A stretch of DNA of 64,000 nt, taken from positions 1 to 64,000 of the IMG/VR virus record IMGVR_UViG_3300021197_001350; one strand, given 5' to 3'. Both the position numbers and the translations under genes were made by a program. Within the stretch, counting starts at the first letter, position 1. Every line of letters begins with the position of its first letter. The notes under the pieces were generated by a model. It did not search any database and was not told the origin of the DNA. It saw only the letters and a program-made list of their open reading frames with translations. Origin of the DNA: a virus. Below, one piece after another: positions 2,489-56,418 of the stretch.

Positions 2489-2799
2489 TTTTTAGGCTTA
2501 GCTTTAGCCCTAGGCTTAGCTTTAGCTTTAGGCTTAGGCTTGGGCTTGCTTCTGGTTAGCTTGACTGGAGTTGCAGGTTCAATCTTTTCGACATCGATAC
2601 CCGAATCCCCCAGCTTCTTCTTCATTTGAGTCATGGCGGTTTGAAGGGTAGCCTTCTTCGCCTCCACTGACTTCATCAAATCCATCACCCTACTCATGTC
2701 GGGTGGCTTAATACTCTCAAGGGATTTTTCTAGTTTATCAAAGGCAGCCTTCATTACGAATCCTGCTTCTCGCTTTTCATTCTCGCTTAGTTCTTTCAT
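2485..2799 (-). CDS. Hypothetical protein with histone-H1-like KPKA tail
   Basis: C-terminus KPKPKPKAKAKPRAKAKPKK; ATGA overlaps at both ends. Confidence 0.65.
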   Translation of the reverse strand: MKELSENEKREAGFVMKAAFDKLEKSLESIKPPDMSRVMDLMKSVEAKKATLQTAMTQMKKKLGDSGIDVEKIEPATPVKLTRSKPKPKPKAKAKPRAKAKPKK

Positions 2800-11700: not shown

Positions 11701-14700
11701 GACCAGCCAACCGCAGGTCGGGCAGTCAATGACAGGAATACACCATATTTAGTATCATCAGCCTCATTGCCTCCATCCTTCCCTGCATCGATAGATGAAA
11801 AATACTCTAGTTCATTATCAGATATATCTGGATCAAGTTGCCCCCCACCTATATCAGTCTTCTTTCCGCTTATTATTTGACTACTAGGAGCTGGCAGGTT
11901 AACGCCTATATTGTCATCGGTGACAGTAACACTTCTCCTATGCGACTGTGATGATCTTCCGTGAAAAATAAACCTTGGCTCATTTGTTTGGGCGTGCCTA
12001 AAGAACCCTACCTCTGTAGTTGGATTCTCTCCCTCAACCCCCTGAAATCCCAACATCCAATCACCATAAAAGTTTCTAAATGAAGGTGTCCTTACTAGCC
12101 TCCACATATCCTCATCAGCGGGACGCTTACCCTCTCCCTCCATTATCGCAATCATAGGATTCTTCACCTCACTTAAAGGGGGAGTTGGATTCTTCTGTGA
12201 TCTAGGTTGAGAAAGCAAGTATCTCTTGTTTGGCAAAAGCCTCTCACCTAGATAGTCCTGCCCTTGGTCGGTTGTCTCCAAGTAGTGCATCGGCACTTCC
12301 TGCTCATCTATAATGGTAGTCTCTTCTATGTTTATAGACTGAGCTTCATTGAGAGTTTTTCTATTACTAACCGATGGCATTCTGGATATAATGCTATTAA
12401 CAGCAAAACCCTCTAATGTGTATAGTATCTTTTCTTCGGGCGTAATCGTTGGATCACTTAGGACTTTCATTACTGGATCAACCCTAACCCTGCTTCTCTT
12501 ATTTAATGCACCAATCTCCAGCGTCTGCTTCATTAAAGCACCAGTTAATGCATGAATACTAGCCTTAGGTTGAACCACTCTACCCATTGCGTAACCAAGC
12601 CCGTCCCAAATTCTACCCTTAATCTTAAATCTTTTAGATAGGTTATTTGGAAGTGGTATAGTTTTTAGGTAAGCCTGGAACTGAGGATTGTTTCTGGCTT
12701 CAGATATAAACTCTCTTACATCAGTCAGGCCATACTGCATTGGGTCATTTGAGAATCTTTTAGCAGCCTCAAATAAAGATACCCAATCTGCTTTTGCCTG
12801 CCTTGCCTTGCCACCAAATTGAGCCTGAGCAATTCTTCCTGACATCTCAGCCTCTACAAAAACCGACTCAGTAATGTGATGGGTTAGCTCATGTCCAAGT
12901 ATTTCCGCCAAGGCGTTCTTCTGTATCTCAAGATACCTTGACTTCTCAGTCTCATTTGTGGGGATCGCACTCGCTATCCCGAAGTCCTTAGATATAAATA
13001 TAACAGGTCTTGCTAGTCCAGCCGCATAGTGGTACTGAGCCACCTTGCCCTGAAACAATCTAGACATCGTACTCTTATTTAAGATGCGAATATCAGGTGC
13101 AATAAGACCTGTCTTATTCATATCCCTATATAAATTTGAGAGGGTATCATTCTCCGCAAATGCGGTTAACTCTGATACAGTTAATTCTTTATCACCGAAC
13201 TCAGCCCAAAGGGAATCATTTAACCCTGCCCTTACTTCGGTTGTATATCTAGTCTCCTTGCCCGTGGTTTGATTATGTCTATTGACTACAATCGCAGTAG
13301 GTGAGGAGGGAGTTAGTTCTACATTCTTAAGGTCTCCCGTAACAGGATTAAGCAAGTCGGGTATCAAGTGAGGATCTCTTACTCTGGTTAAAGTTCCCGC
13401 CTTCTCGCCAGCAGTAAACTCTGGGCCTTTAAGCCATGAAAGAAATGGTGGCAAAGTTTCATTATCTCTAGCGATAAACTGCTCCATCTTAACTCTCAAG
13501 TATTTCTCCGAAAGATCTGCCGCTATCATGGGATCAAAGCCAGCTGCTTCAGCTACCGCTCTGTATATCTGATAGAATACCTCTCTGATTTTTCTTATTA
13601 CAGCCCGAATGGTTCCCTTCTTTATGTTAGTGTCGGCTAAGTTTTTAGCTACAGTTTCAACTAGCACCTCTTCGGCTGACTCAATTTCCCTAAGCTGATC
13701 CAGGCTAAGCTTGCCCTCATCATACTTATTCCTAGCCCTCTCCATCCTTTTCTTGAGATGCTTATTCCCAAACTCCTTACTGGTCTCATGTATAGCATTC
13801 AGTAAAGCCTGCCTGTCCATCTCTGGAAGGCTATCCAAAACGAAGTGGGTGGACTCATGGTATAGTGATAAAATATTTGTTCCGTCTGGTCTAAGGAGGT
13901 CATTCATTACCATCCTTATAATGGTGTCGGCTTCATTCGTTGATATCTCTGCATTGTTTGCATGGAGAAACCCATAAACACTCTCCATGTTTTTCTTAAA
14001 CAACTGCACATCAACACCGCTCTTACTTAAAGCTTCAAGGAGTTGCGTAAAGTCTCTATCTAGTTCTATAGATTTTGATATCTCATGGTTGGTGTCACTT
14101 ATCCTACGCTTAACTTTTCCTTCTCTAGCTTCTGCTATTCTCTTGGCTCTATTGTTTACGCCATACGCCGACCGCTCGGAGGCAGGTAGGGGTGATGGCA
14201 TCCAAGTTCCTTCACTTCTAAGTTCCTTCTCCGCCTGAATATAATCATTCTCTGTCACCTTTACTTCGGGTGACTCCTCGACCTCTTCTATAATCTCATC
14301 TGATTGTATAGGTGTTGAGTCGGCTATGCTTTTATTCTGTGCATCAACAGCTGCTTCAGCTACTTTTATTAAATGCTCTGCGGGGCTAGAATTGTTTTGC
14401 GTAATTGAAATAAATACATCATCCCACATAAGGAAGTCCGATGGAAGTCGTGCATCAATTAGGGTATTTATTCTTGCAAGTATTGCATCCTTATCCGCCC
14501 CATTAAAAAGATTTGCCAAGTCCTCTGGAGACCTAGGCACATAATCTTTTCTTATGAGGGTAAGAAACCTGTCAAGCTGCCTCACTGTTAGATTGCGATT
14601 TAATAGTACGCTAGCTATTTTTGGCACAGATTGAATGATCTCAGATCTTGGAGTATCCAGTTGGCTCTGCCTGGTTCCAGTTGAACCTGTCTTTATAGGC

Positions 14701-17700
14701 TCAACCCAATCCTTGTAGTCGGTTAAAGTCTTCCATGTTTTTTGCTCAGGATAACCATTGAGAGAGTCAATAGTTTTATCCTCACCCTTCATAAACTTCT
14801 CTAGTCTTATTACTGATATAGGCTTATAACCTGCATCAATAACATCCTGAAGTTTTGCGGGCTTGTTTGATCTTGATAGCTCAATATTATTTTTACTATT
14901 AAGCATACCCAACACGCCAAGTGATCCTGCGGCAGATGAACCCTTCCTTGTGTCTGAGGTAAAATCTGAAAGGCCAGACATAACTATACTACCATCAGGG
15001 GACTCTAAGATTATAACACCTCTAGTCCTATACCTATCACCCTTCTTGCCTCCTAGGTTAGTAGTAGAGCCATTGCCTCCAGTGTCCCTATCTCTGAGAG
15101 TCGTGATTATGGATGAAGCATCTTGCCCAGCTACATCTATCTCCGTTCCCACTGTTGCCCACTGTGGGTTTTGTCCAGCCTTCGTTCGATATACTTGTAT
15201 TGCTGAGTCTGATTTAGGTACAACGATTGAGTCTGGGTTCTTTACTACCTCACCCGCTGGATTAACAACCTTGATTCTCCTGCCTGTGTGATCAGTGATA
15301 TAAGTGCCATTAGCATCTTTCAGTATAAGAAAAGCTATTGGTCTACTTCCCTGACCATCATCAAAATCTTTCGAGTACCCAAGGGGCTTGTTAGTCTTAG
15401 CTCCGCCAAGCCTTATCCCGTAGTAATATTTCCGAAGTGTACTCTTCTCGTAGGAGTTTGTGTTAAACAAAACTCCCATTGACATAATTTCCCCATCGGC
15501 ATTCAGTGGATTCTGTAGATTGCCTGCCTTGGTAGCCCTATCAAACTGCTCCTTATTCATTAGCCCCTGAACTCCGAGGGCGGCGGAAACAGGATTGGAT
15601 GCATCAACTGAGCCAGATATAGCTATACCCTGACCGCCCCTAGTCTTTCCATCTAGGTCGGTATACTCTCTCTTGGTTACAGGGTAAAAGAATTGCCATG
15701 TTTTTGTGGAGGTAACACCTTCAACCACTTCATGCTGAACACTAATAGGCTCCCTCCTAAAGTTATTGTATATCTCAAGCACCCTTATCCTGTGCAGCTG
15801 CTTATTAGAAGCACCGCTTCCAACCCTACGCCTCAGGTCTTGAAGTATATCATCAGCTACCTCTAGTACCCAACGCTCAGTTGTTGTCTCTACCTCACTA
15901 AACTCTTCCTTAATAAGCTTCGTAAGCTCTTCGGGTGTTATGAATCCCTCATTAAAGTCCTGCGTTTTACTGCGGATGTCATCTACTATAGTCTTCTTCC
16001 TTGCATTATAATCTCTACCATCCTTTGACTTATAGCTCTTAATGGATCCAATGTCATCTATCTCTGTGACGCTATACTCATCCACCTGACCTGTTGGACT
16101 ACTGTGCTGTAACTTAGCACCCTTTCTTTTGGCTCCACCTCGTTGGGCTTTAACTACTTTCTTTTGCTTATCGCTATCCTGCTTCTTTATTGATGCAGTT
16201 TTTTGCGGTGAGTCTGGCTCATTGCCTAACAATCTATCTAGCTTTACTAGGGGATCAGATAGATCAATACCTTTGGCGTGATCAAGCTCCCTTTGTGCTG
16301 CACCCTGTAGTGCCTTTGCGTCCTTAAGTTTACTCTCTCTTGCTGCGAGTGGAGTGACAGATACTAACGCATCCTTGCCTGTCTTTTTGACCCTACCTTG
16401 TGAAGCCTGATCAACCTCAGCTTGAGCTACACGCACTGCCTCATTAGCTTTTTCTAAATCTTCTTGAGCCTTGGCAATTCTACGCTGATCAATCTTGGGG
16501 GCGGCCTTCTTCTTCTTAGGCTTAGGAGTGTCTTCTATATCCTCGTACTCGTCTTGATCTTCAGCTTGGGTAGTTGCTGGCTTTGGAGTACCTTTCTTAA
16601 AGTTCTCTATCTCCTGCTCGATACCCTTTAGCTTCTTCCTTTGCTCTTCTATCTTAACCCTGTGAGCCTTATACTTCTTAGAGTTTGCTGACTTAAATTT
16701 ACCGCCATTCTTTTGGGTTCTGCCTTCCGCTACAAGCTTGTTTAGTTTTGCCTTAGCAGCTTTCTTTTGATTAACTAAACTCTTAAGTTTTTTCGCGAGC
16801 TGATCCTTTGACTCTGTTGGTTTCTCAGGGTCTTTTTCAATTCCCTGCAACTCTTCTAGCAGTGATTCACTACCCTTTTGTGTTCTTCTTTTCGACCGAA
16901 TAATTGGAGAAACAGATTCGGGTCGCTCCTTCTTTACTCTATCAGCAGCTAATTCTCTTGCACGCTTTTCTATAGCAGCGTCCTGATCTAGTTCAGTATC
17001 AATCCCTATGTCTGCAACTTTTTGTTTAGTGATCGCTTCAAATCGCTTCTTTGCTTTTTCCGCTATTTGATCCCAGCTTAGCTTCTTAATCGCTCCTTCA
17101 AAGGATCGAGTGCCTGGATCGGGAAGTATACCAAGATCGTTATACCGATCATTGACTTCATTAAATATAGCCTTACCGTCCCATGCGCCATCAAGGTAGT
17201 AGCCAGACTGTAATCTATTTATGAGAACCTCTAGATCATATACCTGCTTTTGATCTTTCGTACTTAGCTTGGCGTATTCTTTTGTCTTTGTGTAAGATAT
17301 ATTGCCTCCGCCATCCTCGATTAGAGTTCGAGTAAAATCAATGCCTTGACCTTCCACCTCATCTCTTGCCTGCCTATACTCTTCCTCGGTTGGCTCAGAC
17401 TCTTTATCTTTAGCGATAGCTTCATCTAGGGAACTAAAGTCTGTCGTGGTCTTTGTTTGTTCTATCCCTATCTCTGCAGCACTTTCTGCGGTAACAGGAA
17501 TATTCTCTATGCCCGCGAGGGTTGCTAGCTCATAGCGATGATTGCCATCCTTGATCTCATAGAAAGCTTCACCCGTAGCATCCTTTAAGGCTTTGTTGTG
17601 ACTAACCTCAATGGGATTACTCTTCAGGAAACTTAGCAACTTTTGCTTGTTTTCTGGATCGGTAAGTAATCTCTGCAAGTCTTCAACTGTTCCAATCTCA

Positions 17701-19772
17701 CCCTTTTGCACAGGGTATCCATTAGGATTCTTAAGCCCTATATATACAGCTAGATCAACAAGCTGACCCATCTCAGGTTTATTCGCACGGGATATCTGTG
17801 CATCCTCTTCAGCTATAGCTTTCTGGAAGCTGAAGGTCTGTACCACATCAGCACTCTCGGTACTCTCTGTTGGCTCAGTAACTTCTTCTTCTGTTATTAA
17901 ATTGGTCTCGGCATTGGGAAACTTTTCTAAAAGTTTTTCTACCTCAGCAAGCCTTGCGTTTGCATCGTAGTCAGGGTCAAGCCTTGCGTCACCTTGCGCA
18001 AGCATATCAGGCGGATTGGCTAGATCTTGTTCAATGCTATCACGCTCCCGCTCAAGAGCTTCCCTTTCTCTTTGCCTCTCCTGATTCCTTCTCTTTTCTT
18101 CAGCCTCAATAAAAGGCCCGAACTCGGCTGTAGCGGATTCAGTGCGAACATCTGCTTCAGCCTGTAGGTCAGCTTGACCTTGAGCAGAAGCCTGCTGAAC
18201 CCTCATTAAATCTTCCGCAGTAGGCACACCAGTTATACTCTCAGTTGGTATAGTTACAACTGGCCCAGTCCTGCCAATGCCCGCTACTTCCCCAGAGAAA
18301 TCGAAGTCTAGTATAGGCTCAATAGATGTACCCTCTCCTGTAGTCCTGACAACCCTACCTATTTGGGGCGTACCACTACTTCCAGTATAGCTAACAATAG
18401 CACCTTGCTTAGATGTATCTATAGTTTGATCTGAATAGGATGATGTGCTTGAGCTTAAATCAGTTTGATCAGGTGCGGGAGGAGTAGACCCCTTACCTAC
18501 AGCTGTAAGTCCACCACCTATGGAACCTGCAACTGCACCAATTATACTGGCATTAATTACCTTAGATTTTGTAAAGTCATCCCACTCTACATCCTCTCCT
18601 CTTTCCCATTTAGGAGCAGCCGTATTAATAAATTCCTGAAAACCTTCAGTGCTTCCTTCTAAGGCCATACCTATGCCAACCTTGCCTAGGGTTGAATCCT
18701 TTGACCTCTGGACTTGCTTACCAAGCCAAGTTAAAGCTCCATCCTTAACAGCCTGAGATTCTCCCATTAAGTTGGCTCGCTTAAGGAATGAACGACCAAC
18801 CCATGCGGGTAGTATTGAATCAGGTAATGCCGCTATACTTCCATACGCAAGTGCAGGTGCTTGAGCCTCTTCATGTGAAAAACCATCACCACGAAGTGTG
18901 TTGTATATCTCGCCACTATTTAAAGCCAGTGAGTTTAAAGTTGAAGCACCTATGCCGCCTCTCATTTTCCATAGCTGAGCTGCGTAGTCTTCAACATCCA
19001 TGATCTCGCCAGCCCGCTTTCTCCCCTCAAGGACAGCCTTGTGACCAACACCATATGTTGGATTCTTTCGAGTAACTTTCTGAGCCATAGACTTCCGCAA
19101 GTCTTGCCTCATCTTAGATGCCACGCCTTTCTTTACGGCTGCCTTACCTGAATAGATTGCTGCAGCTCCTGTTCCTGCTGTACCGCTACCAATAAAGTAA
19201 GCGGCTACACCCTCCACGAGGGATGGTATAGCTTGACCTAATATATTCGCAGAGTACTCGCGTAAAGCTCTACCACTTATCCCATTAGCTCTAAATAAAT
19301 CTTCATACTTTCTTACTGATGCCCTGGGTGCATTTGTCTGCAGATCAACACCCCACTGGAATGCGGCCTCACCGCCTGGCAATCCTGTCATACCATAGCC
19401 ACCAGACATTGAACCAACCATTCCTCGGGTTGCTTTATTGAGTCCACCACCGAACTCATCAAGCATACCACTGTCTTGACTTTGAAGATCGAGATCTAAA
19501 TAGTCATCTCTAAACTCAGGGTTAACGGACTCTGCAACCAACGCACGCATCCCTGCGGATCCTTCGCTCGCCTGAGTATTTCGTAACTGATCGCCAATGA
19601 ATGCGGTTAGCTCACTATCTGACCGTGGATCATATGTTCCTTGCTCAGCAAGTTTAGCTCTATACTTTGCAACAAGCTCATTGGTTCCCGTCCTGCCGTC
19701 AAGCTTGCTAGGCAGATCATTCTGCCTAATCTCACTATATAGGCGGTTGATCTCGTCTGGAGACTGAGCCAT
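2796..19772 (-). CDS. Giant (5,658 aa) internal virion/ejection protein of the large polyvalent type: ParB-like, two zincin HExxH, ART-like and kinase-like domains
   Basis: 17-kb open frame after the internal-protein genes; motifs IKDGNHRY (~17550), YHESTH (~13850), GHELTH (~12885), RTPSFRNFYGDW/FIFHG (~12090/11965), NRDGHAGN..FDKG (~8500). Confidence 0.85.
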   Translation of the reverse strand: MAQSPDEINRLYSEIRQNDLPSKLDGRTGTNELVAKYRAKLAEQGTYDPRSDSELTAFIGDQLRNTQASEGSAGMRALVAESVNPEFRDDYLDLDLQSQDSGMLDEFGGGLNKATRGMVGSMSGGYGMTGLPGGEAAFQWGVDLQTNAPRASVRKYEDLFRANGISGRALREYSANILGQAIPSLVEGVAAYFIGSGTAGTGAAAIYSGKAAVKKGVASKMRQDLRKSMAQKVTRKNPTYGVGHKAVLEGRKRAGEIMDVEDYAAQLWKMRGGIGASTLNSLALNSGEIYNTLRGDGFSHEEAQAPALAYGSIAALPDSILPAWVGRSFLKRANLMGESQAVKDGALTWLGKQVQRSKDSTLGKVGIGMALEGSTEGFQEFINTAAPKWERGEDVEWDDFTKSKVINASIIGAVAGSIGGGLTAVGKGSTPPAPDQTDLSSSTSSYSDQTIDTSKQGAIVSYTGSSGTPQIGRVVRTTGEGTSIEPILDFDFSGEVAGIGRTGPVVTIPTESITGVPTAEDLMRVQQASAQGQADLQAEADVRTESATAEFGPFIEAEEKRRNQERQREREALERERDSIEQDLANPPDMLAQGDARLDPDYDANARLAEVEKLLEKFPNAETNLITEEEVTEPTESTESADVVQTFSFQKAIAEEDAQISRANKPEMGQLVDLAVYIGLKNPNGYPVQKGEIGTVEDLQRLLTDPENKQKLLSFLKSNPIEVSHNKALKDATGEAFYEIKDGNHRYELATLAGIENIPVTAESAAEIGIEQTKTTTDFSSLDEAIAKDKESEPTEEEYRQARDEVEGQGIDFTRTLIEDGGGNISYTKTKEYAKLSTKDQKQVYDLEVLINRLQSGYYLDGAWDGKAIFNEVNDRYNDLGILPDPGTRSFEGAIKKLSWDQIAEKAKKRFEAITKQKVADIGIDTELDQDAAIEKRARELAADRVKKERPESVSPIIRSKRRTQKGSESLLEELQGIEKDPEKPTESKDQLAKKLKSLVNQKKAAKAKLNKLVAEGRTQKNGGKFKSANSKKYKAHRVKIEEQRKKLKGIEQEIENFKKGTPKPATTQAEDQDEYEDIEDTPKPKKKKAAPKIDQRRIAKAQEDLEKANEAVRVAQAEVDQASQGRVKKTGKDALVSVTPLAARESKLKDAKALQGAAQRELDHAKGIDLSDPLVKLDRLLGNEPDSPQKTASIKKQDSDKQKKVVKAQRGGAKRKGAKLQHSSPTGQVDEYSVTEIDDIGSIKSYKSKDGRDYNARKKTIVDDIRSKTQDFNEGFITPEELTKLIKEEFSEVETTTERWVLEVADDILQDLRRRVGSGASNKQLHRIRVLEIYNNFRREPISVQHEVVEGVTSTKTWQFFYPVTKREYTDLDGKTRGGQGIAISGSVDASNPVSAALGVQGLMNKEQFDRATKAGNLQNPLNADGEIMSMGVLFNTNSYEKSTLRKYYYGIRLGGAKTNKPLGYSKDFDDGQGSRPIAFLILKDANGTYITDHTGRRIKVVNPAGEVVKNPDSIVVPKSDSAIQVYRTKAGQNPQWATVGTEIDVAGQDASSIITTLRDRDTGGNGSTTNLGGKKGDRYRTRGVIILESPDGSIVMSGLSDFTSDTRKGSSAAGSLGVLGMLNSKNNIELSRSNKPAKLQDVIDAGYKPISVIRLEKFMKGEDKTIDSLNGYPEQKTWKTLTDYKDWVEPIKTGSTGTRQSQLDTPRSEIIQSVPKIASVLLNRNLTVRQLDRFLTLIRKDYVPRSPEDLANLFNGADKDAILARINTLIDARLPSDFLMWDDVFISITQNNSSPAEHLIKVAEAAVDAQNKSIADSTPIQSDEIIEEVEESPEVKVTENDYIQAEKELRSEGTWMPSPLPASERSAYGVNNRAKRIAEAREGKVKRRISDTNHEISKSIELDRDFTQLLEALSKSGVDVQLFKKNMESVYGFLHANNAEISTNEADTIIRMVMNDLLRPDGTNILSLYHESTHFVLDSLPEMDRQALLNAIHETSKEFGNKHLKKRMERARNKYDEGKLSLDQLREIESAEEVLVETVAKNLADTNIKKGTIRAVIRKIREVFYQIYRAVAEAAGFDPMIAADLSEKYLRVKMEQFIARDNETLPPFLSWLKGPEFTAGEKAGTLTRVRDPHLIPDLLNPVTGDLKNVELTPSSPTAIVVNRHNQTTGKETRYTTEVRAGLNDSLWAEFGDKELTVSELTAFAENDTLSNLYRDMNKTGLIAPDIRILNKSTMSRLFQGKVAQYHYAAGLARPVIFISKDFGIASAIPTNETEKSRYLEIQKNALAEILGHELTHHITESVFVEAEMSGRIAQAQFGGKARQAKADWVSLFEAAKRFSNDPMQYGLTDVREFISEARNNPQFQAYLKTIPLPNNLSKRFKIKGRIWDGLGYAMGRVVQPKASIHALTGALMKQTLEIGALNKRSRVRVDPVMKVLSDPTITPEEKILYTLEGFAVNSIISRMPSVSNRKTLNEAQSINIEETTIIDEQEVPMHYLETTDQGQDYLGERLLPNKRYLLSQPRSQKNPTPPLSEVKNPMIAIMEGEGKRPADEDMWRLVRTPSFRNFYGDWMLGFQGVEGENPTTEVGFFRHAQTNEPRFIFHGRSSQSHRRSVTVTDDNIGVNLPAPSSQIISGKKTDIGGGQLDPDISDNELEYFSSIDAGKDGGNEADDTKYGVFLSLTARPAVGWSESLQAHRGLSQDALRVTLRQRYLKSYFENFSMAGTSSQAKLILDDEIMTNEGLNNLAPIYLTSVISSSEATIDESELYPVPSSLLSGSILEEEFTEGYVYDEITGEPSLSQNVHHKNTGKDGWGYPVHKKNKAIGRMFYLPGVVSAPHENLVSNGVIIRDISNVKHYATVTNDKEPMGMIAIEGKDGQLSYFRVKSDLYSDPDLGVVQTRITRNGLISGEVEPASVASPESLKAYMFSGEVSAEALGKHLEEVSHEEFTAHASYMGEQMNTLLEASVENVQRSLTGTSFTAEVNSIPSSQTLLQTEDKVADLESGIPTSSQNNPTWQDAANRYDVDVRDLIEYQGGLVYYDTSLSERHKNALRKEAKKYNKRLVESDEAINSNLVPTTDSIQVPILDENMFTEGMILPLFTSAKNPLMINEEGVQNQQYGNSASLFIAASQHITGARIPWFSQGYRNIPVKDGKPVLSSFYSDVHDLSVLYNMSGRVLKGGKYTSTPSVFDEKSFMSDPLINLRNPITALSKVTSTDFNAKGDTNAMSIESSKLEDLLAGDYNLELMDNEEVEEIRAELEGMTSSDVHKYGNDLPSGKSALDPIQYFIENDSVSETISWMVQEGYSKADLATITSILNFGKELNEIDFVLSKQEQIDKGRKPKGTRFEDTLNNYSMFNPDGAVIPTREQEQAFKYALIQHAELAGMPHSRLLGLITLKHKLEQLSEGSATSDDPHFSFIDVARRLDETKPVVVDKDSTPFMDGADVFVQDGRMFKLDRMSKEQASQEVFGSIILNMSGVLNPPKTLVEIEGAGPEGQSEYAVVTPVGFTEVKEGMPTNTINWVGGAKLTGVNINKDNTKAVNVFLRSGNQLSYGAIDAIETGMYFGSTTIKQGLGSIDGRETQDQVTAGGGLLNNIPEEFIALAAADAELESTPSQSLIRSGEDLYGGNSTLEQRQSPEGDVLFDNGLWKSKTLLTKIDKRGTASNRRLYGEAVGSAVTNYITGGLVAVAKVRNGNLEQYKVDDMQEMKELRSQRKHTLDESATEQDLADIGDLNNQQYVLDLIKHGIADYIVNNRDGHAGNFGIANGHIVSFDKGQSFRFYQHNTKGSLANANNDSIMSMGTDPESIENEASDVDGIIHFLNTQFGKKMKYSGNPRIVYSQLKNLVSQAGVTPEAILADLIPVIKRATRLSQEVRDLGLFDEYTDSEFQPGLSPTVDLELEMMERLDGMKAKVAELIVYLTGRDAQIDVSKEGQPEYFRNIHYPQGKTEGDFTKLTSAEGGGSIKSPKSISYKEETPMLLDQVIAKKREIVDSTMPAYYATRLYADEPSFSADITGTANGSTLRTSDYAQELMSSLMTSTRSRQDDISGHDFIISGRNEDVQNGSQVILPFPNKTLKTVQAKAFDGPQLKRRIDVDEDDAVSASTQRTNAYDGTQAASNRLLLNSIEDSHKNAILKGYKGNLESYIKDLFKINPQENLRAIATRDAQVADLSIVDFDGNPAMTDRALRFAAELHTNTMNNLIRKKGRLEKKLDDAMDSIQEAAEEINALTTKKNDATVHEAKAQAAVRKLIKDYMRGMDGQVDLTFDHGKLLGSIKEVEKVLKGDTLSSVYRDALYDIFDGNTKVFAYIQAMAELGIDYANASETEIVSAINGSTKPELQSLKNNKPLMSTLVAFSKDKALQMALLEARTSKDTSDASKIDDEIKRTQRLSEEQLKDLRREIKGIRKSVSKVYKVRDAYAQARLIHKRKTKQAEKTKALIKLHEDAMVSISGKEKSLQQRLGVGYNFNAVPGEQYFIMQKVGNDWVATKAVYSIEGTDENRIKINNAKYFNKAYLAEQDAKGKGDEPFNRMLSDMTMQLSKAVVHREYKSIHRNMLDRALNTLEQRLRATGQSGVQVTRMIAEFRRIQQNNRNEQVSLAGKWEGAYGEAIKASGMDQSVFKEMVYDTAIYWIENMPDLANDPTALYGAVYKEIEKTMKGSGKPVSPSLKGALQKLWVATENIAEWENGIADKHNVLVEDPSVQWSNPLTGSRENILRRRIKYGRITIPRQMRGEVIAALTTIMGNNEGEYLSVVGGWNNSDIFNQIKLLGKKAVGQDAAFDEMMGLADQLFNETIINTFLDPLLSKPGDPIFTAPKKRGSNAKHPIPQDEVMSAWLDSGKSFKEFVVQLFLNQDADIQDLPAFASDILGRLRQVYQMGRSIAVKVDTTPMSSETTPHRMMDARTNTIFPREWLEYDTFTKVDAGIHVSKLASVAAFGRDSSILSGMMDAAMAEARQLQLPLTEVQQNPAYLSLKTEKERKQFLISKLGKERYESARDAARIRDEIKDLKKSMIDLFSAPGGGFKDMRMLEELASLNADLVLRTPKSGLWQALSGMDYTQRLGYGTISARASGTFIYNSIKNVFGSLFNEGLGIPLMQATESAKAINYIRSTPGQQDLTFKELFANHGVQGTGEGIVRTSRKIKDGLDKSIGLKGGSTGSSGFAPFTPLSPFSWLNNVFGSAVAEGGINVWRTVITRALAYIDQNPSVMGDPNFRFNLKHLGIKGSLIGGNERALEYLADTWAEHTGQSLLDFIKQSYNRKTNQQEIFSKEDYLNMYQIAMDDINLEGGIGSTPVAFRTNGILRVATPLLRWATGKSNAVHGSLQTQEGRYTINSVLKGLAGISAVGMPIGIAATMLMDEYDEEILGKKSNLRKVDPINLLPGFAAFNMLSNKDGQGLAILERLARSGNVYGLGMEAAYGMAAWTDPMQGQRALGIDRILVYSQVANARDAFVNIMHSGWYMNYEDGKKIVDVMAGQAPAHFTQTVNNLLMPINDNERRRVKRVDAYNYLRSAGRSAGVPLKKSGMRTNPTPLTARIRQMQLAAYGDDPEEFNNILQDAISVAVDMGKEDPIGSIVSSWKARQPMDLFQRTLTPDETEEVFKHMNQRGKENVLDLIRLHEKYLNYLEPRKVDFNRSMSQDRYNRANINKNRLLYLNL

Positions 19773-40113: not shown

Positions 40114-42288
40114 CTACTGTTGTTGTGGTGGTGGCATATCCTGAGGTGGGGGAGCTGCTCCTTGTGGAGGCGGAGCTTGTTCTTGTGGTGGCATAAGCTC
40201 TTCACTTTCACCCTCCTCAAGTTCTAGTTTAACATCAAAGCCCGCTCCCGACTTCCTGAATATCTCATTGATTAACTCAAAAAGCCTACGCTTACCAACT
40301 GCCTCAACCACGGGTTGTATTTGAAGTATCTGCCCAAGTAGGGCAGTTAAAGTTTCAGCACTCTTAACATTGATAGAACGCTCTGGGCCATCCCTACTGC
40401 TAAAGAGATACTCATGCACCAAGCTTGCTGGAGTACCTACGACATTCCTGACCATAGGGTCTGAGATGTCGTACTGCTCATCCGAAGGCTCAAGTCCAGC
40501 TTCTCTTATTACACCCTCCGAGTATCTGTTCTTTACGGGGACATCAAACTCACTGGTACTGCAAGAAACCAAATGCTCATAAAGCATCTTCTTCATGCCC
40601 GCCCTCATTTCATCAATACCCTCTGATACGAATGAGTATATAGACTCCACACTGGTACTCATCTCCTGAACCTCAGTAGCCGATATCTCTCTTGGAGCTG
40701 GCTGCCCAACCTCTTGCGGTGAAAGAACTAACATACGCTCAACAATACCAAGCAACTGAGATATAGCCTGTAAGCTTTGGTTTACAGTGTTACCCATGTC
40801 TGCCTGAACCACATTCACAAAGTTCTTTGCATCTAGACCAAGGTCTCCCATCTTTTGACCAGAGTATAGTAATAGCTTTGGATTAACATAATAATCCGAT
40901 GCCTTCATAGTCTGCTCAATATAATCCTTCACTTCATCATCTAAGGCATCCTTATCGACTGCCCAAATCTGAGTTAAGCCAATCTTCATATTAAGAAGCA
41001 TTTGACTAAGCAAGTTACTAAGCTGATCCTGGTATGGCATTATCTCCATAGCCATACTATTATTCATTACCCTTGAGTCATTCTCATTTAAACCGCCATA
41101 GATTGCAGGTATACTAGGCATGAACTCAGAGTAAACCACTGTGGAATCACTTGCTACAACAAGCCTGAGCCAGACATCATAAGGGTAATTACCTATACCC
41201 CTATCCCTTGGGTTTACCTTCATAAATAAGTTGGTAAGGAACACTCCCTTGTCCCCATCCTCAGATGAGTATATACCAGTATTACTAGTTCTCTCATTCT
41301 GGAAAGGAGTGTTAGGAACTTCTGAATGTTGAGGTGTTGGCCACCTAAGCACAGAAGGGGGATAGTAATATGAAAAGAACTGCTGGTACTGCTGGTATAC
41401 TCCAAACAATGTACTCTCATATCCTATGTCAGAAATATTATAATACTCGGGGTTATCCTGAATGGATGAATAATTAACCACATCCCAATACCCTAGCCAT
41501 GTTGGGCCTGTATCTGTATTTACACCTGGCAATGGTTGGGATAAATCCCTGAATACCCGACTAGGGTGAGGGTTAATAAACTCCATACCCTCACGGGTTA
41601 CATAGTTCTCAAGGTCATCTGTTTCACCAAACTCACTTCTTGCATATCTCCATTGACAATCCCGAGTCCACCTTTCGCGAGGAAAGACCACCGAATGACC
41701 ATACATGAACATATCCCTAATATACTGAGAGAAGTTATGTCTCATTCCAAACTGATCCACCATGATCTCAATCCTCTGACTCAAGGCATCACCCCTGAGT
41801 TTAGCTGGTAGTGCGGTAGACCTAGCCTCATATTTAAAATAAGGATAAAGATTATTAAACCTAGACACCTGCGCGGCAACCCGTCTGGTTACATATGAGC
41901 GAATAAGATTCATTGAGGTTTCATACAACCTCATTAGGTTTATTTTCTTAACACCGCCCGTCTCATCCCTCTCACAAAAATCGTCTGCACAACCTAAACC
42001 TGAAAGCTTTTCACCCGCCTGATTCATGGATATCTTACCTTGTGCGTACAACAATAAAGGTATTGTGGTTTTATTTATAGCCTGACTATCCCAAGCTAGA
42101 TCCACAGCCATATAGGGGTCGCTTGTAGATGCCGACCAGTTTACCCCCTCATATACTCGACTTTCTATTTCGTTCTCAAACTTTTGCTTAATAGCCCAGT
42201 CCGAACTTTCCATATCCTTACAGGTGAATATCTCTCGCAACCTTTGCTGCGTACACCCATACTTTTCGAGTATTTCTAAATTTACCAT
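40114..42288 (-). CDS. Portal protein
   Basis: 724 aa, downstream of terL; podovirus-portal-like SATEV motif; Q/P-rich tail. Confidence 0.8.
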   Translation of the reverse strand: MVNLEILEKYGCTQQRLREIFTCKDMESSDWAIKQKFENEIESRVYEGVNWSASTSDPYMAVDLAWDSQAINKTTIPLLLYAQGKISMNQAGEKLSGLGCADDFCERDETGGVKKINLMRLYETSMNLIRSYVTRRVAAQVSRFNNLYPYFKYEARSTALPAKLRGDALSQRIEIMVDQFGMRHNFSQYIRDMFMYGHSVVFPRERWTRDCQWRYARSEFGETDDLENYVTREGMEFINPHPSRVFRDLSQPLPGVNTDTGPTWLGYWDVVNYSSIQDNPEYYNISDIGYESTLFGVYQQYQQFFSYYYPPSVLRWPTPQHSEVPNTPFQNERTSNTGIYSSEDGDKGVFLTNLFMKVNPRDRGIGNYPYDVWLRLVVASDSTVVYSEFMPSIPAIYGGLNENDSRVMNNSMAMEIMPYQDQLSNLLSQMLLNMKIGLTQIWAVDKDALDDEVKDYIEQTMKASDYYVNPKLLLYSGQKMGDLGLDAKNFVNVVQADMGNTVNQSLQAISQLLGIVERMLVLSPQEVGQPAPREISATEVQEMSTSVESIYSFVSEGIDEMRAGMKKMLYEHLVSCSTSEFDVPVKNRYSEGVIREAGLEPSDEQYDISDPMVRNVVGTPASLVHEYLFSSRDGPERSINVKSAETLTALLGQILQIQPVVEAVGKRRLFELINEIFRKSGAGFDVKLELEEGESEELMPPQEQAPPPQGAAPPPQDMPPPQQQ

Positions 42289-42566
42289 TTTTCTTTATTT
42301 GCCCAGTACGCTGCAGACATCTTGCCCTTAGCGATGTTCTTGCCGTGCCTAGCCTTAAAGCTTTTGCGTTTAGCCTTCATCTTAGCTGACTCGCCCGCCT
42401 TAGGCTTGCCTGCTGTCTTAGCTCCCTTTTCGCCAAACCTAATTGTTTTTATGTTATTACCATCCTTAGCCACAACAATATGTGACTTCTTGGAGTGACC
42501 TGGAGTTCTCTTGGGTTTGTTGTAGCCGCTCACCCCTGCCCTTGCTAGCCTTGCATCCTTCTTCAT
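42282..42566 (-). CDS. Small basic conserved phage protein (IRFG...RKSFKARH...SAAYWANKEKW)
   Basis: Motif typical of small proteins near phage portal genes; start revised to ATG 42566 (ATGA overlap, GGAG SD). Confidence 0.7.
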   Translation of the reverse strand: MKKDARLARAGVSGYNKPKRTPGHSKKSHIVVAKDGNNIKTIRFGEKGAKTAGKPKAGESAKMKAKRKSFKARHGKNIAKGKMSAAYWANKEKW

Positions 42567-49742: not shown

Positions 49743-51032
49743 ATGATTGGATCTAATTTAAGCGAGAATGATTATGAAAGCGGAGTCCTCAGCTCATGCC
49801 TGAGAGACATACAATGGCCCACGGCTTATAGCCGAGCTTGTGACATAATATCCCCTGAGCATTTTGCAGATGCTAACAAGGGTAAAGTGTTTGAGGTGAT
49901 GGGTAAGTTAACCGAGCCACCTGATGAATTTGTATTAGCTAATGAATCAGGAGTAGACATGATAGACATAATGGGTTGGTGCGAAAGGACAGAGACATCA
50001 ACTTATGTAGTCACCTTTGCCGAAGGAGTTATGAAGTGCTGGTCTAAAAGACAGGCAGAGCATATCGCTAGGGAAGTAATGGATAAGGTTTCCAACCAAG
50101 AGGATCCCAACGAGATCCTCTCTAACGCAAGTAAAAGAATTACGGATGCCCTTGGGTCTCATAGCAATGAGATTAAAGAAGTGCATGATGGCATAGATGA
50201 AACCCTACAGAATTGTTATGACCTTGATGAGGGTAAGGTGGAGCCAGGAATAAACACAGGGTTGCCTGACTTAGATAAGGTCTTAGGTGGTTTCAAGGTG
50301 GGAGAGTTTGCAACTATAGCCGCCCGACCCTCACATGGTAAGACGGCATTGGCATTATCCATAGCGGCTAATATAGCATCCACTGGCAAGAAGGTTTTAT
50401 TCTGTAGCCTTGAGATGACAACTGAACAGCTGAGAAAAAGATTAATGCACGCTGAGGCACGAGTACCTATTATCAATAGACCCAATCACTACAATGGTGA
50501 AGACAGGCATAAGCTTGAAGATGCGGTTGGTAGGATTAAGGGTTGGAGCCTAAAGGTGGATCAGACTTGTGGAGTCACAGTACCTTATCTCCTTTCAAAA
50601 GCAATGGCTGAGAAAACACGGAACGGACTTGATATACTATTCATTGATTACATTGGTATAATGAATGGGCCAGGCAAGGATATATACGAGAGGGTATCAG
50701 GGATATCCCGTGGCATTCAGCAAATAGCAAAGAAGGTTGAGATACCTGTGGTTGCATTATCCCAACAGAACAGGGATTCCGAAAAGGACAACAATGCAAA
50801 GATGAGTCACCTTAGAGACTCAGGTAGTGTAGAGCAGGATGCCGATCAGGTGATCATGCTTAGGCGTTCTAAGGATATGGGCGATAAGCCTTTTGAACCC
50901 GTAGAGATAATGGAAGTGACCATCGCCAAGAATCGGAATGGTTGCACAGGTAAAATACCCTTGACATTTTGTAGAAGCTTTGCACGATATGAAAGCACAG
51001 CGAAAGAAAACAGCGAACCCAGATTAAACTAA
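49743..51032 (+). CDS. dnaB: Replicative DNA helicase DnaB
   Basis: AARPSHGKT, SLEM, FIDYI, ALSQQNR, LRDSGSVEQDAD, IAKNRNG. Confidence 0.97.
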   Translation: MIGSNLSENDYESGVLSSCLRDIQWPTAYSRACDIISPEHFADANKGKVFEVMGKLTEPPDEFVLANESGVDMIDIMGWCERTETSTYVVTFAEGVMKCWSKRQAEHIAREVMDKVSNQEDPNEILSNASKRITDALGSHSNEIKEVHDGIDETLQNCYDLDEGKVEPGINTGLPDLDKVLGGFKVGEFATIAARPSHGKTALALSIAANIASTGKKVLFCSLEMTTEQLRKRLMHAEARVPIINRPNHYNGEDRHKLEDAVGRIKGWSLKVDQTCGVTVPYLLSKAMAEKTRNGLDILFIDYIGIMNGPGKDIYERVSGISRGIQQIAKKVEIPVVALSQQNRDSEKDNNAKMSHLRDSGSVEQDADQVIMLRRSKDMGDKPFEPVEIMEVTIAKNRNGCTGKIPLTFCRSFARYESTAKENSEPRLN

Positions 51033-53025: not shown

Positions 53026-53430
53026 ATGCAAAACCCATTCGCAAACGATAACACCCATCCGCAAGAAAAGACCAACATCGCTCCTCTCCTTACAGGAGAT
53101 AAGTTAATCACTCTGCTAGCAAAGCTAGCTGAGAAGGGATTGATGGAGTGGGACGCTGAGCGTAGCTTAGCAATGGTTGCAAAGCGTGTGTTAACACAGA
53201 CAGCAGGAAGCACTGAGGAAGCTCAAGGACTTCGTGGTTGGCTTTCAAGCCAAGGCTTCAGAGGTTCCCGTAGAAGCAGAAGCTTCTACCTTTCTCTCAG
53301 CGACTTGGAAAGTCGTGGCGTTACCATCACCGATGGTAAACCACAAGTTTGTGAACCAAAGGTTCAACAGGCTAAAGGTCGTAGCAAAGCTACACTGAAC
53401 TTTTCCGACATCATGGGGCTTACTGAGTAA
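53026..53430 (+). CDS. First early-region hypothetical protein
   Basis: AGGAGG upstream; followed by a terminator. Confidence 0.75.
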   Translation: MQNPFANDNTHPQEKTNIAPLLTGDKLITLLAKLAEKGLMEWDAERSLAMVAKRVLTQTAGSTEEAQGLRGWLSSQGFRGSRRSRSFYLSLSDLESRGVTITDGKPQVCEPKVQQAKGRSKATLNFSDIMGLTE

Positions 53431-53442
53431 GCCTTGTGATTG

Positions 53443-53481
53443 GGGTAGCCCTTCGGGGCTACCCTACCTTTTTTTTCTTTT
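53443..53481 (+). terminator. Intrinsic terminator
   Basis: GGGTAGCCC-TTCG-GGGCTACCC followed by a long T-run. Confidence 0.9.
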
Positions 53482-53514
53482 CGTTCAACAACAACAACAT
53501 AGGAGGATATATAT

Positions 53515-54123
53515 ATGTCTATCGACACAGCAGTATCAGCAACATCAACAATACAAACACCATCCAATATGGATGATGCAGATTGGAGTCACTTTCGTAA
53601 GCTCGACAAGTTAGAGCTTGATTGGTCACCTCGTTCCATCTTGGATCATCTCAAGATTAGCCCTAACACTGTCCGTAGGATATTGGGCTACTCCGAGACC
53701 AAGGTGGCTAATGCTGAAAGGCATCTTCGTTATAAGTCTTCAACTTATAAGCCACAACCTTGCAGTTATGTTGTCCGTCCCATAAGGGAGGATGAGATAA
53801 ATGGTGAGGATGTTAGGATGAAAGTGGTTGACTACTATGATGGTGACAGGGTTAAGCCTGGCTATAAGCCATCACCACTAAAGGTTGACCGAGGTGGTAT
53901 AGGTTATGAGGATGCCTTCTACGAAGCAGTAGGTTTGGGAGGTGACAAACATAGATTTCCAATCGTTGATGTTGAACAGGGTAATGATGATGAAGTTGCC
54001 ACTATGTCTTACGAACATAAGACAGGTGGTGCTATAAGCTTCGTCAAGAAAGCAGTAGCCAAGATGACTCGCCGTAGGAACTACGGAACTTGCTTGTCTA
54101 CTATCAGTCCTTACAGATCGTAA
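53515..54123 (+). CDS. HTH-containing hypothetical protein
   Basis: WSPRSILDHLKISPNTVRRIL HTH; AGGAGG SD. Confidence 0.75.
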   Translation: MSIDTAVSATSTIQTPSNMDDADWSHFRKLDKLELDWSPRSILDHLKISPNTVRRILGYSETKVANAERHLRYKSSTYKPQPCSYVVRPIREDEINGEDVRMKVVDYYDGDRVKPGYKPSPLKVDRGGIGYEDAFYEAVGLGGDKHRFPIVDVEQGNDDEVATMSYEHKTGGAISFVKKAVAKMTRRRNYGTCLSTISPYRS

Positions 54124-54131
54124 GGCTGAAC

Positions 54132-54163
54132 CGACCCACTTGGGGGTCGTTAAACATACCAAG
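54132..54163 (+). ncRNA. H-type pseudoknot (copy 1)
   Basis: S1 CGACCC/GGGTCG, S2 CTTGG/CCAAG, loop 3 TTAAACATA. Confidence 0.65.
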
Positions 54164-54169
54164 ACACTT

Positions 54170-54752
54170 TTTCGGATGGTAGTATGGCTACTATGCTTCG
54201 CCAAAAGCATGGAGAAATCCAAGTTATGAGGTTAGGAAGATTGACCACGGCATCCATATGGATGACTAGGTTGGCTTACTCATGGTAACCCTATCTATGG
54301 GGTTTGATACCGAGGCTGAGTCTCATGTCGTTGATTATTCAGTCGGGCTTTATATGCATAGATTATCCTGTAATACAGGGTGTCGGTCTCTCCTTCATGA
54401 GAGGCATAGGAATCCCAAGTATAGATGAACGATCTATTGAGGCTTATCACCTTTCTATACTCCAAGATCAGGCATAGGGGATAACAGCATCGTGGTTTAC
54501 CAGTCGGTGCTAAGGTGGGGATCATCGTATGGTGTGACCACCAAGAACGGGGACAACATTTATACGGAGGGTTGTCATGCAGTATGGCGGTAGGGGGCTA
54601 TACTAATATTTACTTTTGAACAACGATATACATCACGCTGCAGATGGTCACTATATCGGGGTCGGTTTGGTAAGAGCTTGGACTAGTGACGGCTAGTCTA
54701 CATTACCTTAACTCTCGGTGTTAGAGAGGCTGACCTGTTCATACCTTTTTTT
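54170..54752 (+). ncRNA. Candidate large structured ncRNA A (~580 nt)
   Basis: No long sense ORF; more than 12 hairpins plus nested long-range helices; ends in T7. Confidence 0.55.
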
Positions 54753-54771
54753 ATTTACATTTTCAAAGAAA

Positions 54772-54811
54772 ATGACAGCCGAAAATTGGCGAATGACAGC
54801 CAGTTGGTAGG
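54772..54811 (+). promoter_or_regulatory. Tandem ATGACAGCC boxes, 21-bp period (copy 2)
   Basis: Boxes at 54772 and 54793, followed by AGTTGGTAGG. Confidence 0.7.
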
Positions 54812-54897
54812 GCGAGCAGTTGATTTGCTGTTTCACTTGTGTATTATATTTATAAAATCAATGGATGCTTCCGCATCCATGTGTTGGAGGAACTGCT

Positions 54898-55005
54898 ATG
54901 AAGATAAAGATACGGAAGCCTATATTGTTTACCAAGTCTAGACCATTCAAGGTTAAGGCTAAGGTGTTGCATCGTAAGATGAAATACAAGGAGAGGCTAG
55001 CTTGA
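54898..55005 (+). CDS. 35-aa basic peptide MKIKIRKPILFTKSRPFKVKAKVLHRKMKYKERLA, loosely ArfA-like
   Basis: Hand translation; GGAGG SD at correct spacing; preceded by ATGGATGC/GCATCCAT hairpin. Confidence 0.65.
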   Translation: MKIKIRKPILFTKSRPFKVKAKVLHRKMKYKERLA

Positions 55006-55039
55006 TAGGGCAAGCAAATAATCCCTAACAATTTACTTT

Positions 55040-55576
55040 TGATGGATTGATCATCCATCATGGGACGCTAGTAGAAGTCACAACCTTAGTGACACTAGCA
55101 CTCATGTCCGAGTGATGCTCGGGGTCAACGGCTAAGTAGCTGAGGCTAGGTGAAGGACACCGATGTAGGGTAACGCCTACCATGAGGTACTGATCTGACA
55201 ATCCTATAAACTGAACTATAGGTATGTCTCCTGCAGGTGAGGGTTCACAGCCCAAGTCCTGTCATTGTCGCATAATAATGGACTTAGGAACATAGTGCGA
55301 ACAAGGTCTGCAATGTTGCAGGTTCAACGAGCAAGTGCTTGAGAACGGGTTAAACACCTACCAAGTTGCGGAGATATCATGTCGTTAACTAAGGATCAGT
55401 TGGGAGAAGGCTGAAGAGTAATCTCCCCCCGACCATTTTACTTTAGCCGTGTGGCAAGTTCGTTGTAAAAAGAACTAGAATGATGAGTTGGTAGAACAGA
55501 ACGCTCTGCAAGAAAATCTACCATGAAATAGTGCGAATCATAGGGTAACGACCTTGAGGCCAATCATCCACGGCTA
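55040..55576 (+). ncRNA. Candidate large structured ncRNA B (~540 nt, possibly two modules)
   Basis: Long-range helices CTCATG/CATGAG, ACTGATC/GATCAGT and TAGCCGTG/CACGGCTA enclose multiple hairpins. Confidence 0.6.
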
Positions 55577-55608
55577 TTCATTTTCACCAACAATAACAAG
55601 GAGGAAAT

Positions 55609-55887
55609 ATGAATGACGATACATTAAGACAAGCGGTAAGAATGAAGCAAGGTATTGAATGCCTTAGCATAAGAGATCTCAACAAGTTAGTAGGTGCTTA
55701 TATACTAGGCACTCAACCTAGCTATATTGTTAGGTCTGCTATCAGTGATGTCGCTAAAGAAGAGTTCGTCAAGGAGTATGGAAAGGCTCAGCTATCTTGG
55801 GTAGATAATGCCGAGCAATACTCCAAAGGTACGGAAGCCAACTTCATCCTGGAGTCAATGCATGGCGACAGGATAGAGCGTTTATAA
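55609..55887 (+). CDS. Hypothetical early protein
   Basis: AAGGAGG SD; ORF track. Confidence 0.75.
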   Translation: MNDDTLRQAVRMKQGIECLSIRDLNKLVGAYILGTQPSYIVRSAISDVAKEEFVKEYGKAQLSWVDNAEQYSKGTEANFILESMHGDRIERL

Positions 55888-55895
55888 TACCCATA

Positions 55896-55926
55896 AGTCT
55901 GACGGGGCAGACTATAAACAACCCCG
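55896..55926 (+). ncRNA. H-type pseudoknot (copy 2)
   Basis: S1 AGTCTG/CAGACT, S2 CGGGG/CCCCG, loop 3 ATAAACAA. Confidence 0.65.
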
Positions 55927-55968
55927 ACTATTTATTTCTAATCAACAATAACAAAACAAGGAGGATAT

Positions 55969-56340
55969 ATGTTAAAATCAAAACCATTCGCAGGGCTTAA
56001 GACAGGCAAGGATACAGAGGGTCAAACCTTTTTCAAGTTCGATGCCAACCATAAGCCTAAGCAGTTTAAGCCAAGGCGTAAGCGTAACAAACCAAGGTTT
56101 GCTTTCGTGCTTCAGGCTTTCGATGGTGAGAAATGGAAGGTGATCCGCAAAGATGGATTGCTTATTCACTCCAAGTCATGCAAGGAGGTACGGACTAAGG
56201 AGTTTGTTAAGTGTCTACAAGATGGAGGCTTTGTATCTCAGATGAAGATACAAGTATTCGGTAAGCGTAGCATAACTGACAAGGAATTCTTTTCAACCCC
56301 CGTCAGATGGAGGAGTATCGATGCCGTATCAATCGTCTGA
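55969..56340 (+). CDS. Basic hypothetical protein
   Basis: AAGGAGG SD; ORF track. Confidence 0.75.
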   Translation: MLKSKPFAGLKTGKDTEGQTFFKFDANHKPKQFKPRRKRNKPRFAFVLQAFDGEKWKVIRKDGLLIHSKSCKEVRTKEFVKCLQDGGFVSQMKIQVFGKRSITDKEFFSTPVRWRSIDAVSIV

Positions 56341-56353
56341 AACAAACAAACAA

Positions 56354-56390
56354 GGCAGGGGGGAGGTATACTTCCCTCCTGCCCACTTTA
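56354..56390 (+). terminator. GC-rich hairpin, weak terminator or processing stem
   Basis: GGCAGGGGGGAGG-TATA-CTTCCCTCCTGCC followed by CACTTT. Confidence 0.6.
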
Positions 56391-56418
56391 AACTAACACC
56401 AAGAGAAAGGATAATATT

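Follow-up and report, generated by a model that had tools for sequence, protein, structure and literature searches.

What does an uncultured marine phage keep in a 1,485-nt stretch of its early region where no long reading frame can be found? The window analysed here, 64 kb of DNA, is the first part of a 74,397-bp IMG/VR record from such a phage, with the structural genes, including the terminase and a 5,658-aa ORF, on the minus strand and the replication and early genes on the plus strand. (The 5,658-aa ORF is one reading frame at 2796-19772 (-), inside the structural module.) The gap lies between a 202-aa gene ending at 54123 and a 92-aa gene starting at 55609, in the neighbourhood of replication genes, with DnaB at 49743-51032. 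Inside it, at 55040-55436, a preliminary description of the sequence had placed a large multi-junction noncoding RNA (ncRNA) of no known signature. That reading is supported by what follows, since no known family accounts for the element and both covariation and transcripts are found. The stretch 55061-55431 (+) is very likely an expressed, structured ncRNA gene of ~370 nt whose family is not in Rfam 15, and high confidence attaches to the explanation as a whole, in which the RNA is a stand-alone, self-contained cassette carried by unrelated marine phages.

Protein coding does not account for the gap. It holds no ORF of at least 140 aa under table 11, table 4, TAG=Q or TAA=Q, so that none of the alternative codes opens it, and homologues of the RNA differ by frame-breaking indels of 1-2 nt, which excludes coding through the element. 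What, then, carries this RNA, and in what company?

Carriers and the modular array

No close cultured relative of the window phage was found, and the clues to its host are limited to terminase and capsid genes that match cultured relatives at just 25-33% identity. Protein-anchored searches of IMG/VR with the 202-aa, 92-aa, DnaB, AAA ATPase and 123-aa families returned only one close relative (L002, 97% identical) and one distant relative (L006, from genome G001), the latter with an AAA ATPase 55% identical to that of the window. L006 retains parts of the gap, and a BLAST search for the RNA in it found none. Two marine metagenome contigs reached via the AAA ATPase family, L010 and L011, contain the whole array. 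Between them and the window the RNA is 91-92% identical, against 67-76% at the nucleotide level for most flanking genes. As far as sequence comparison goes, this shows the RNA to be under much stronger constraint than most of its neighbours.

A gapped pattern made from two invariant blocks of the RNA located a further copy at L019 8832-9199, in record IMGVR_UViG_3300021964_009390 (222,461 bp, rated complete by CheckV), bringing the homologues to four (L002, L010, L011 and L019) and the alignment, with the window, to five sequences. The L019 copy is 76% identical to the window over the RNA core, and its carrier is a very different phage. It bears a T4-type major capsid gene and lacks psbA; the window phage terminase has no detectable match in it, and the DnaB-type helicases of the two are only 27% identical. 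An all-against-all comparison of ORFs between the two genomes (G000 for the window phage, G003 for the L019 carrier) left only ~6 protein families in common, namely the DnaB-type helicase, PHROG 3347-like proteins, a 599-aa protein and a few small ones. None of these adjoins the RNA in both phages, the co-occurrence by which a protein partner was sought. A copy in an unrelated T4-like phage with so few common proteins makes the RNA a cassette common to unrelated phages. As a separate observation, the ~200-aa PHROG 3347-like protein, which carries the name Galactose-3-O-sulfotransferase in PHROGs, is 45-47% identical between these otherwise unrelated genomes. Its gene is at 69811-70449 (-) in G000, outside the window, and at 41809-42393, 64986-65591 and 65595-66209 in G003, where two copies are 3-4 kb upstream of the RNA.

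Other collections added no copy. Neither the gap nor the L019 region had a blastn match among 50,697 deposited phage genomes, exact 20-22-nt words of the RNA retrieved nothing new from IMG/VR and 185,579 species genomes, and the gapped pattern found none in the species genomes, which at the low sensitivity of that pattern gives no hint of a copy in a host or prophage.

In the window the RNA is one of several units in a row. Module 1 (approximately 54170-54608 (+)) is ~76% conserved in L010 and L011 and partly present in L006; one of its hairpins is replaceable, and compensatory changes are visible, such as CCTG/CAGG to CTTG/CAAG in L002. Module 2 (54620-54745 (+), with a T7 run after it to 54752) is a conserved hairpin set, and between the window and L002 it too changes in a compensatory way (GACTAG/CTAGTC to GGTTAG/CTAACC). 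Two ATGACAGCC repeats, 22 nt apart in the region 54770-54850 (+), stand ahead of a sigma-70-like promoter-like site at 54820-47 (+; TTGATT-16-TATTAT), and L010 retains the pair as ATGACCG repeats. Judged by their sequence, repeats and site are probably an operator and early promoter for the small ORF and the RNAs. That ORF, 35 very basic codons at 54898-55005 (+) with a good Shine-Dalgarno, sits just upstream of the RNA; its protein is conserved in L010 and L011, with synonymous changes, and has no Pfam match. It is ruled out as an obligatory partner of the RNA, as L019 has no ORF between its promoter-like site and the RNA. Downstream, module 4 (55445-55577 (+)) is a compact RNA closed by AGCCGTG/CACGGCT. 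Six phage contigs preserve module 4, among them L006 and L009, whose proteins are far more diverged; three of its pairs covary, an internal hairpin is optional (L010 and L011 lack it), and two of its words, ATAGTGCGAA and GGGTAACG, recur in the 55061-55431 RNA.

The order of these units is not fixed. The L011 array runs module 2, ORF, module 1, RNA, so the upstream neighbour of the RNA differs there, and the L006 array is without module 2, the 35-aa ORF and the RNA. Downstream, the RNA is followed by module 4 in the window and by a different module in L010 and L011; in L019 other genes come next. Extra noncoding modules between the RNA and module 4 occupy L010 2700-2867 and L011 1507-1590; they are mutually unlike, and a contig from an RNA run extends from the L011-type one into module 4. 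The L019 copy has a gap of ~750 nt to itself; a TTGACT-16-TATACT site precedes it by ~60 nt, and a terminator-like hairpin follows. Immediately beyond the RNA, L019 9205-9487 is a second GC-rich stretch; no ORF is annotated there, and it is unlike the window modules.

The borders between modules are marked by a linker motif. TTTACTTTWG has exactly three copies in the 64 kb (54609, 55032 and 55437), all of them in the gap at module borders. A 17-nt imperfect direct repeat lies on either side of the RNA, and the linker motif reads CCCTAACAATTTACTTTTG upstream (55023-55041 (+)) and CCCGACCATTTTACTTTAG downstream (55428-55446 (+)). The L019 copy is flanked by a similar motif (CAATTTAA / CAATTTCA), and related CAATTT(A/C)A words are present on both sides. 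The motif may be a processing site or it may be a promoter. Taken as a sigma-70 -10 box it fits the 5' ends of L019-like variants in RNA libraries, and it misfits both the 55056 end of the window type and module 4, whose closing helix begins 1 nt past the motif.

Fold and covariation of the RNA

Does the element fold as the preliminary description supposed? As a single sequence, the 397-nt stretch folds at -137.3 kcal/mol (z = -3.69), and 0/100 dinucleotide shuffles did as well; the minus strand alone gives z = -3.54. RNAalifold on the five sequences returned 126 pairs, and compensatory changes occur in 25. Covariation was counted on this fold plus the pseudoknot, 20 helices in all. Standard pairs fill 98.2% of cells in the five-sequence alignment, against 34-45% for slid partners. 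Double-sided changes affect 26 pairs, against 7.7 +/- 2.2 in shuffles (0/500 reach 26) and 0-4 in six slid controls, most of these changes tracing to L019 alone because four of the five full-length sequences are close kin, a sample that stays below R-scape-grade statistics. Covariation touches 15 of the 20 helices. On the plus strand every one of the five sequences forms 13-15 G-U pairs, which makes this strand the functional one. A conserved multi-junction fold, covariation and a lack of coding potential, the marks of an ornate RNA, thus come together in this element, and homology and structure agree on its boundaries, 55061-55431 (+).

All the complementary words listed in the preliminary description, CCTATA/TATAGG and CTGCA/TGCAG among them, are present in the sequence at their positions, and its pairing scheme stands in most helices, which covary among the five sequences; three of its pairings give way to two long-range helices and one new hairpin. 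Read from 5' to 3', a hairpin at 55040-55060 (+), P1, comes first (TGATGGAT/ATCCATCA in the window, ATCAGATC/GATCTGAT in L019). P1 is conserved in position and not in sequence, and homologues from public runs diverge upstream of 55060; this proposed flanking hairpin exists as described, outside the 55061-55431 core. The core (+) is closed by TGGG 55061-64 / CCCG 55428-31. Within it, the proposed two-part hairpin GCTAGT-GTCAC / GTGAC-ACTAGC is found at 55067-55099 (+) around an invariant AACCTTA loop; its inner stem has three covarying pairs, GTCAC/GTGAC becoming GCCAC/GTGGC in L010 and GGAGC/GCTCC in L019.

Two domains follow. Domain 1 (55101-55186 (+)) is a five-way junction closed by CTCATG 55101-06 / CATGAG 55181-86 and holding four hairpins (55108-22, 55123-47, 55149-61 and 55165-80, all (+)), just as had been drawn, with covarying pairs in each of the five helices. 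Domain 2 (55189-55400 (+)) is closed by ACTGATCT 55189-96 / GGATCAGT 55393-400; the earlier closure of this domain by ACTGATC (55189) and GATCAGT (55394) holds, since the helix has three covarying pairs (ACATGTCT/AGACATGT in L019). It continues in GACA 55197-200 / TGTC 55380-83 (+), with one covarying pair (A-U to C-G in L019), and this distant pairing replaces the local GACA/TGTC arm of the first scheme. After a hairpin at 55203-22 (+), an inner multiloop (55224-55377 (+)) is closed by the long-range helix ATGTCTCC 55224-31 / GGAGATAT 55370-77, whose three covarying pairs supersede the TCCT/AGGA arm. The multiloop contains hairpins at 55233-62, 55308-21, 55322-46 and 55347-59 (+) plus a candidate pseudoknot; covariation is also present in its helices 14, 17 and 18, and variant fragments from public runs agree. 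The hairpin at 55347-55359 exists in two forms, GGGTTAAACACC in the window and the distant L019 and GGGGTAACGCC in L002, L010 and L011, the second copying the loop of the hairpin at 55165-80. Such a mosaic suggests recombination among variants of the RNA.

The third pairing to be replaced was AAGTCC/GGACTT, which has two mismatches in L019 (AAGGCC/GGATCT). ACTT 55282-85 pairs instead with AGGT 55304-07, a stem that covaries in L019 (C-G to U-A, U-G to C-G). With this new hairpin, the contact proposed between the words TCGCA and TGCGA becomes an H-type pseudoknot (55266-55307 (+)), in which TGTCGCAT 55266-73 / GTGCGAACA 55295-303 crosses the hairpin stem. The words and the covarying hairpin are there, and the pseudoknot stem does not vary among the five sequences, so that covariation speaks neither for nor against it; in the model it is plausible. 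The core ends in a 3' hairpin at 55402-55427 (+; GGGAGAAGGCT / AGTAATCTCCC), found as proposed, with its GGGAGA/TCTCCC stem kept paired in L019 as GAGAGA/TCTCTC. The longest invariant runs are 55061-77, 55212-26, 55285-305 (at 21 nt the longest of all) and 55404-20. Much of this sequence is drawn unpaired, which in the modelled fold suggests tertiary contacts or a binding surface.

Transcripts, rival readings and a possible function

Is the RNA made? At least half of its sampled 31-mers occur in 20 public marine runs from 15 studies, and six of these runs are metatranscriptomes. Contigs from three of the metatranscriptomes and from a DNA run, all chosen because the RNA stretch is present in them, were mapped to 53400-56400. 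The DNA run covers this whole interval at ~3x. In the three RNA runs the main cover is 55056-55420 only, at a depth of 20-350, figures that like the strand and exact ends are hints only, coming as they do from assembled contigs and not raw reads of preselected runs. Other cover is confined to 54257-54334 (module 1, one run) and 55433-55581 (module 4, another run), and the ~2 kb of coding flanks have none in any of the three. The absence of transcript and covariation, which would have spoken against an RNA gene, is not what the data show: 26 pairs change on both sides, and the stretch is deep in marine RNA libraries where its flanks are not. In several RNA contigs an Illumina adapter sits at each end, marking a whole insert that runs from 55056 to ~55395 or, in a variant, to ~55420; the deepest contig, at 350x, is the L019-like variant. 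Contigs from RNA libraries start inside or right after P1 (55056, 55057), and the 5' end varies with the variant, being 55056 for the window type and in the P1 loop for others. Further variant fragments have single hairpins swapped for others of like size, and more compensatory changes.

Known families were searched with Rfam 15, whose 4227 models include GOLLD, ROOL, raiA, OLE, HEARO, IMES, RNase P, tmRNA, 6S, group I and II introns, small ribozymes and riboswitches. The whole window has no match at the gathering score, and at E<=10 there is no relevant match on 54400-55700, 55030-55450 or L019 8700-9500. ARAGORN found no tRNA or tmRNA gene in the window, L006, L010, L011, L019 or L020. The preliminary description had recognised no tRNA, tmRNA or intron signature and had proposed an Infernal/Rfam check, and both searches come out on its side. 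Omega RNAs, bridge RNAs and retron msr were considered and rejected, as they go with an adjoining nuclease or reverse transcriptase gene, and no Pfam or PHROG match to IscB/TnpB, an IS110 recombinase or a reverse transcriptase is found among the neighbours.

Could the RNA be a cis-acting leader of the early operon, working by antitermination, stabilisation or a riboswitch-like mechanism, so that its abundance in libraries is that of a nuclease-resistant decay fragment of a 5' UTR? The element is on the coding strand between the promoter-like site at 54820-47 and early genes, and one RNA contig crosses the linker from a neighbouring module into module 4, which means that read-through transcripts exist. 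However, a cis leader or riboswitch would keep one constant downstream gene family, and the genes and modules that follow the RNA vary among the window, L010/L011 and L019. The L019 copy has a promoter-like site of its own and a terminator-like hairpin after it, the RNA is conserved far above the genes it would regulate, and no riboswitch or leader model matches. A leader is therefore improbable.

Much the same low probability goes to a mobile, self-processing RNA, an ORF-less intron-like element or self-cleaving ribozyme that is excised at the repeated linker motif. Its occurrence at 76% identity in two unrelated phage lineages, the imperfect direct repeats around both the window and L019 copies, the discrete ends suggested by the contigs, the shuffling of modules among relatives and the complex core with its candidate pseudoknot would all suit such an element. 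Against this, models of group I and group II introns and small ribozymes are unmatched even at E<=10, and no homing endonuclease or reverse transcriptase gene adjoins it. No ORF spans the element under the four codes: on one side is the 35-aa ORF that stops at 55005, on the other a further RNA module. As it sits within no gene, it has no exons to join. It is also in place in the DNA run and in five assemblies. As for a DNA-level element, whether replication origin, packaging site or protein-binding array with incidental hairpins, the noncoding gap near the replication genes and the minus strand that folds nearly as well would allow it, but G-U pairs that function on the plus strand only, compensatory changes that keep pairing and not sequence, and enrichment in RNA libraries from which the flanking DNA is absent make it scarcely credible.

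A stand-alone RNA gene therefore remains the preferred reading, and a sequence of events can be proposed for it. The host RNA polymerase would transcribe the RNA early, along with the plus-strand early genes, as suggested by the sigma-70-like site at 54820-47 and by the TTGACT-16-TATACT site in the T4-like phage. A multi-module precursor would then be cut down to the stable core, with trimming close to or at the flanking hairpins and the AU-rich CAATTT(A/C) linker. More tentatively, with somewhat less than even chances, the RNA may be a trans-acting decoy or scaffold that engages a conserved component of the host in takeover or counter-defence; action in trans is proposed because the neighbours of the RNA differ between carriers. 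With almost no proteins in common between the carriers, and none beside the RNA, a partner would be host-encoded or there would be none. A host component is thus the probable partner, unless the RNA acts alone. A bolder extension, speculative and on balance doubtful, is a new ornate RNA class that works without any phage protein, as a ribozyme or an RNA-only multimer of the ROOL and GOLLD type, in a cassette exchanged between unrelated marine phages that would be among their top-abundance transcripts in the sea. If so, the neighbouring modules would constitute an "RNA operon" of the phage, with units reshuffled in the way genes are.

Very few RNAs of bacteria or phages are, to our knowledge, both large and complex, and unexpected RNA chemistry or architecture came with each new one, as with RNase P, group I/II introns, GOLLD, ROOL, OLE and raiA. 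The present RNA comes with assets for structure determination, namely identified carriers (one of them rated complete), clear domain boundaries, natural diversity and depth in ocean RNA, and its comparative support is strong for so few sequences. It raises the question of what a phage gains from early transcription spent on RNA and not on protein. Its presence in two phages with almost no common proteins points to a host target or to an RNA-only function, and either would be new phage biology.

Likeness to known RNAs

Several kinds of RNA resemble this element in part. Like phage group I introns (250-500 nt), it is a discrete RNA of similar size with a multi-helix core and candidate pseudoknot, spread between phages; unlike them it lies in no host gene, has no flanking exon frame and leaves RF00028 unmatched at E<=10. 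The phi29 pRNA and the T4 stable RNAs are small phage-encoded stable RNAs from early transcripts. The present RNA is likewise phage-encoded, apparently stable, located in an early region and possibly cut from a longer precursor, but it is bigger and much more complex, is not beside packaging or tRNA genes, and does not match the pRNA model. IMES-1 to IMES-4 are marine environmental RNAs of very high abundance in ocean metatranscriptomes, and the element shares their conspicuousness in marine RNA libraries; in contrast to them, its carriers are identified as phages, and no IMES model in Rfam matches it.

The closest known kind is that of the phage-borne ornate RNAs GOLLD and ROOL, an affinity of kind only, for every homology test was negative. 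These are large ornate ncRNAs, often borne by phages or prophages, which cryo-EM has revealed as RNA-only homo-oligomeric complexes (PMC12286853). The present RNA is shorter, at ~370 nt against their ~580-800, and has no match to RF01998 or RF03087; GOLLD and ROOL are often found beside tRNA genes, and ARAGORN detects none in the window or related loci. Like them, however, it is a large multi-junction RNA with a candidate pseudoknot and invariant loops, it is borne by phages without an associated protein gene, and it turns up in environmental marine and lake-type data.
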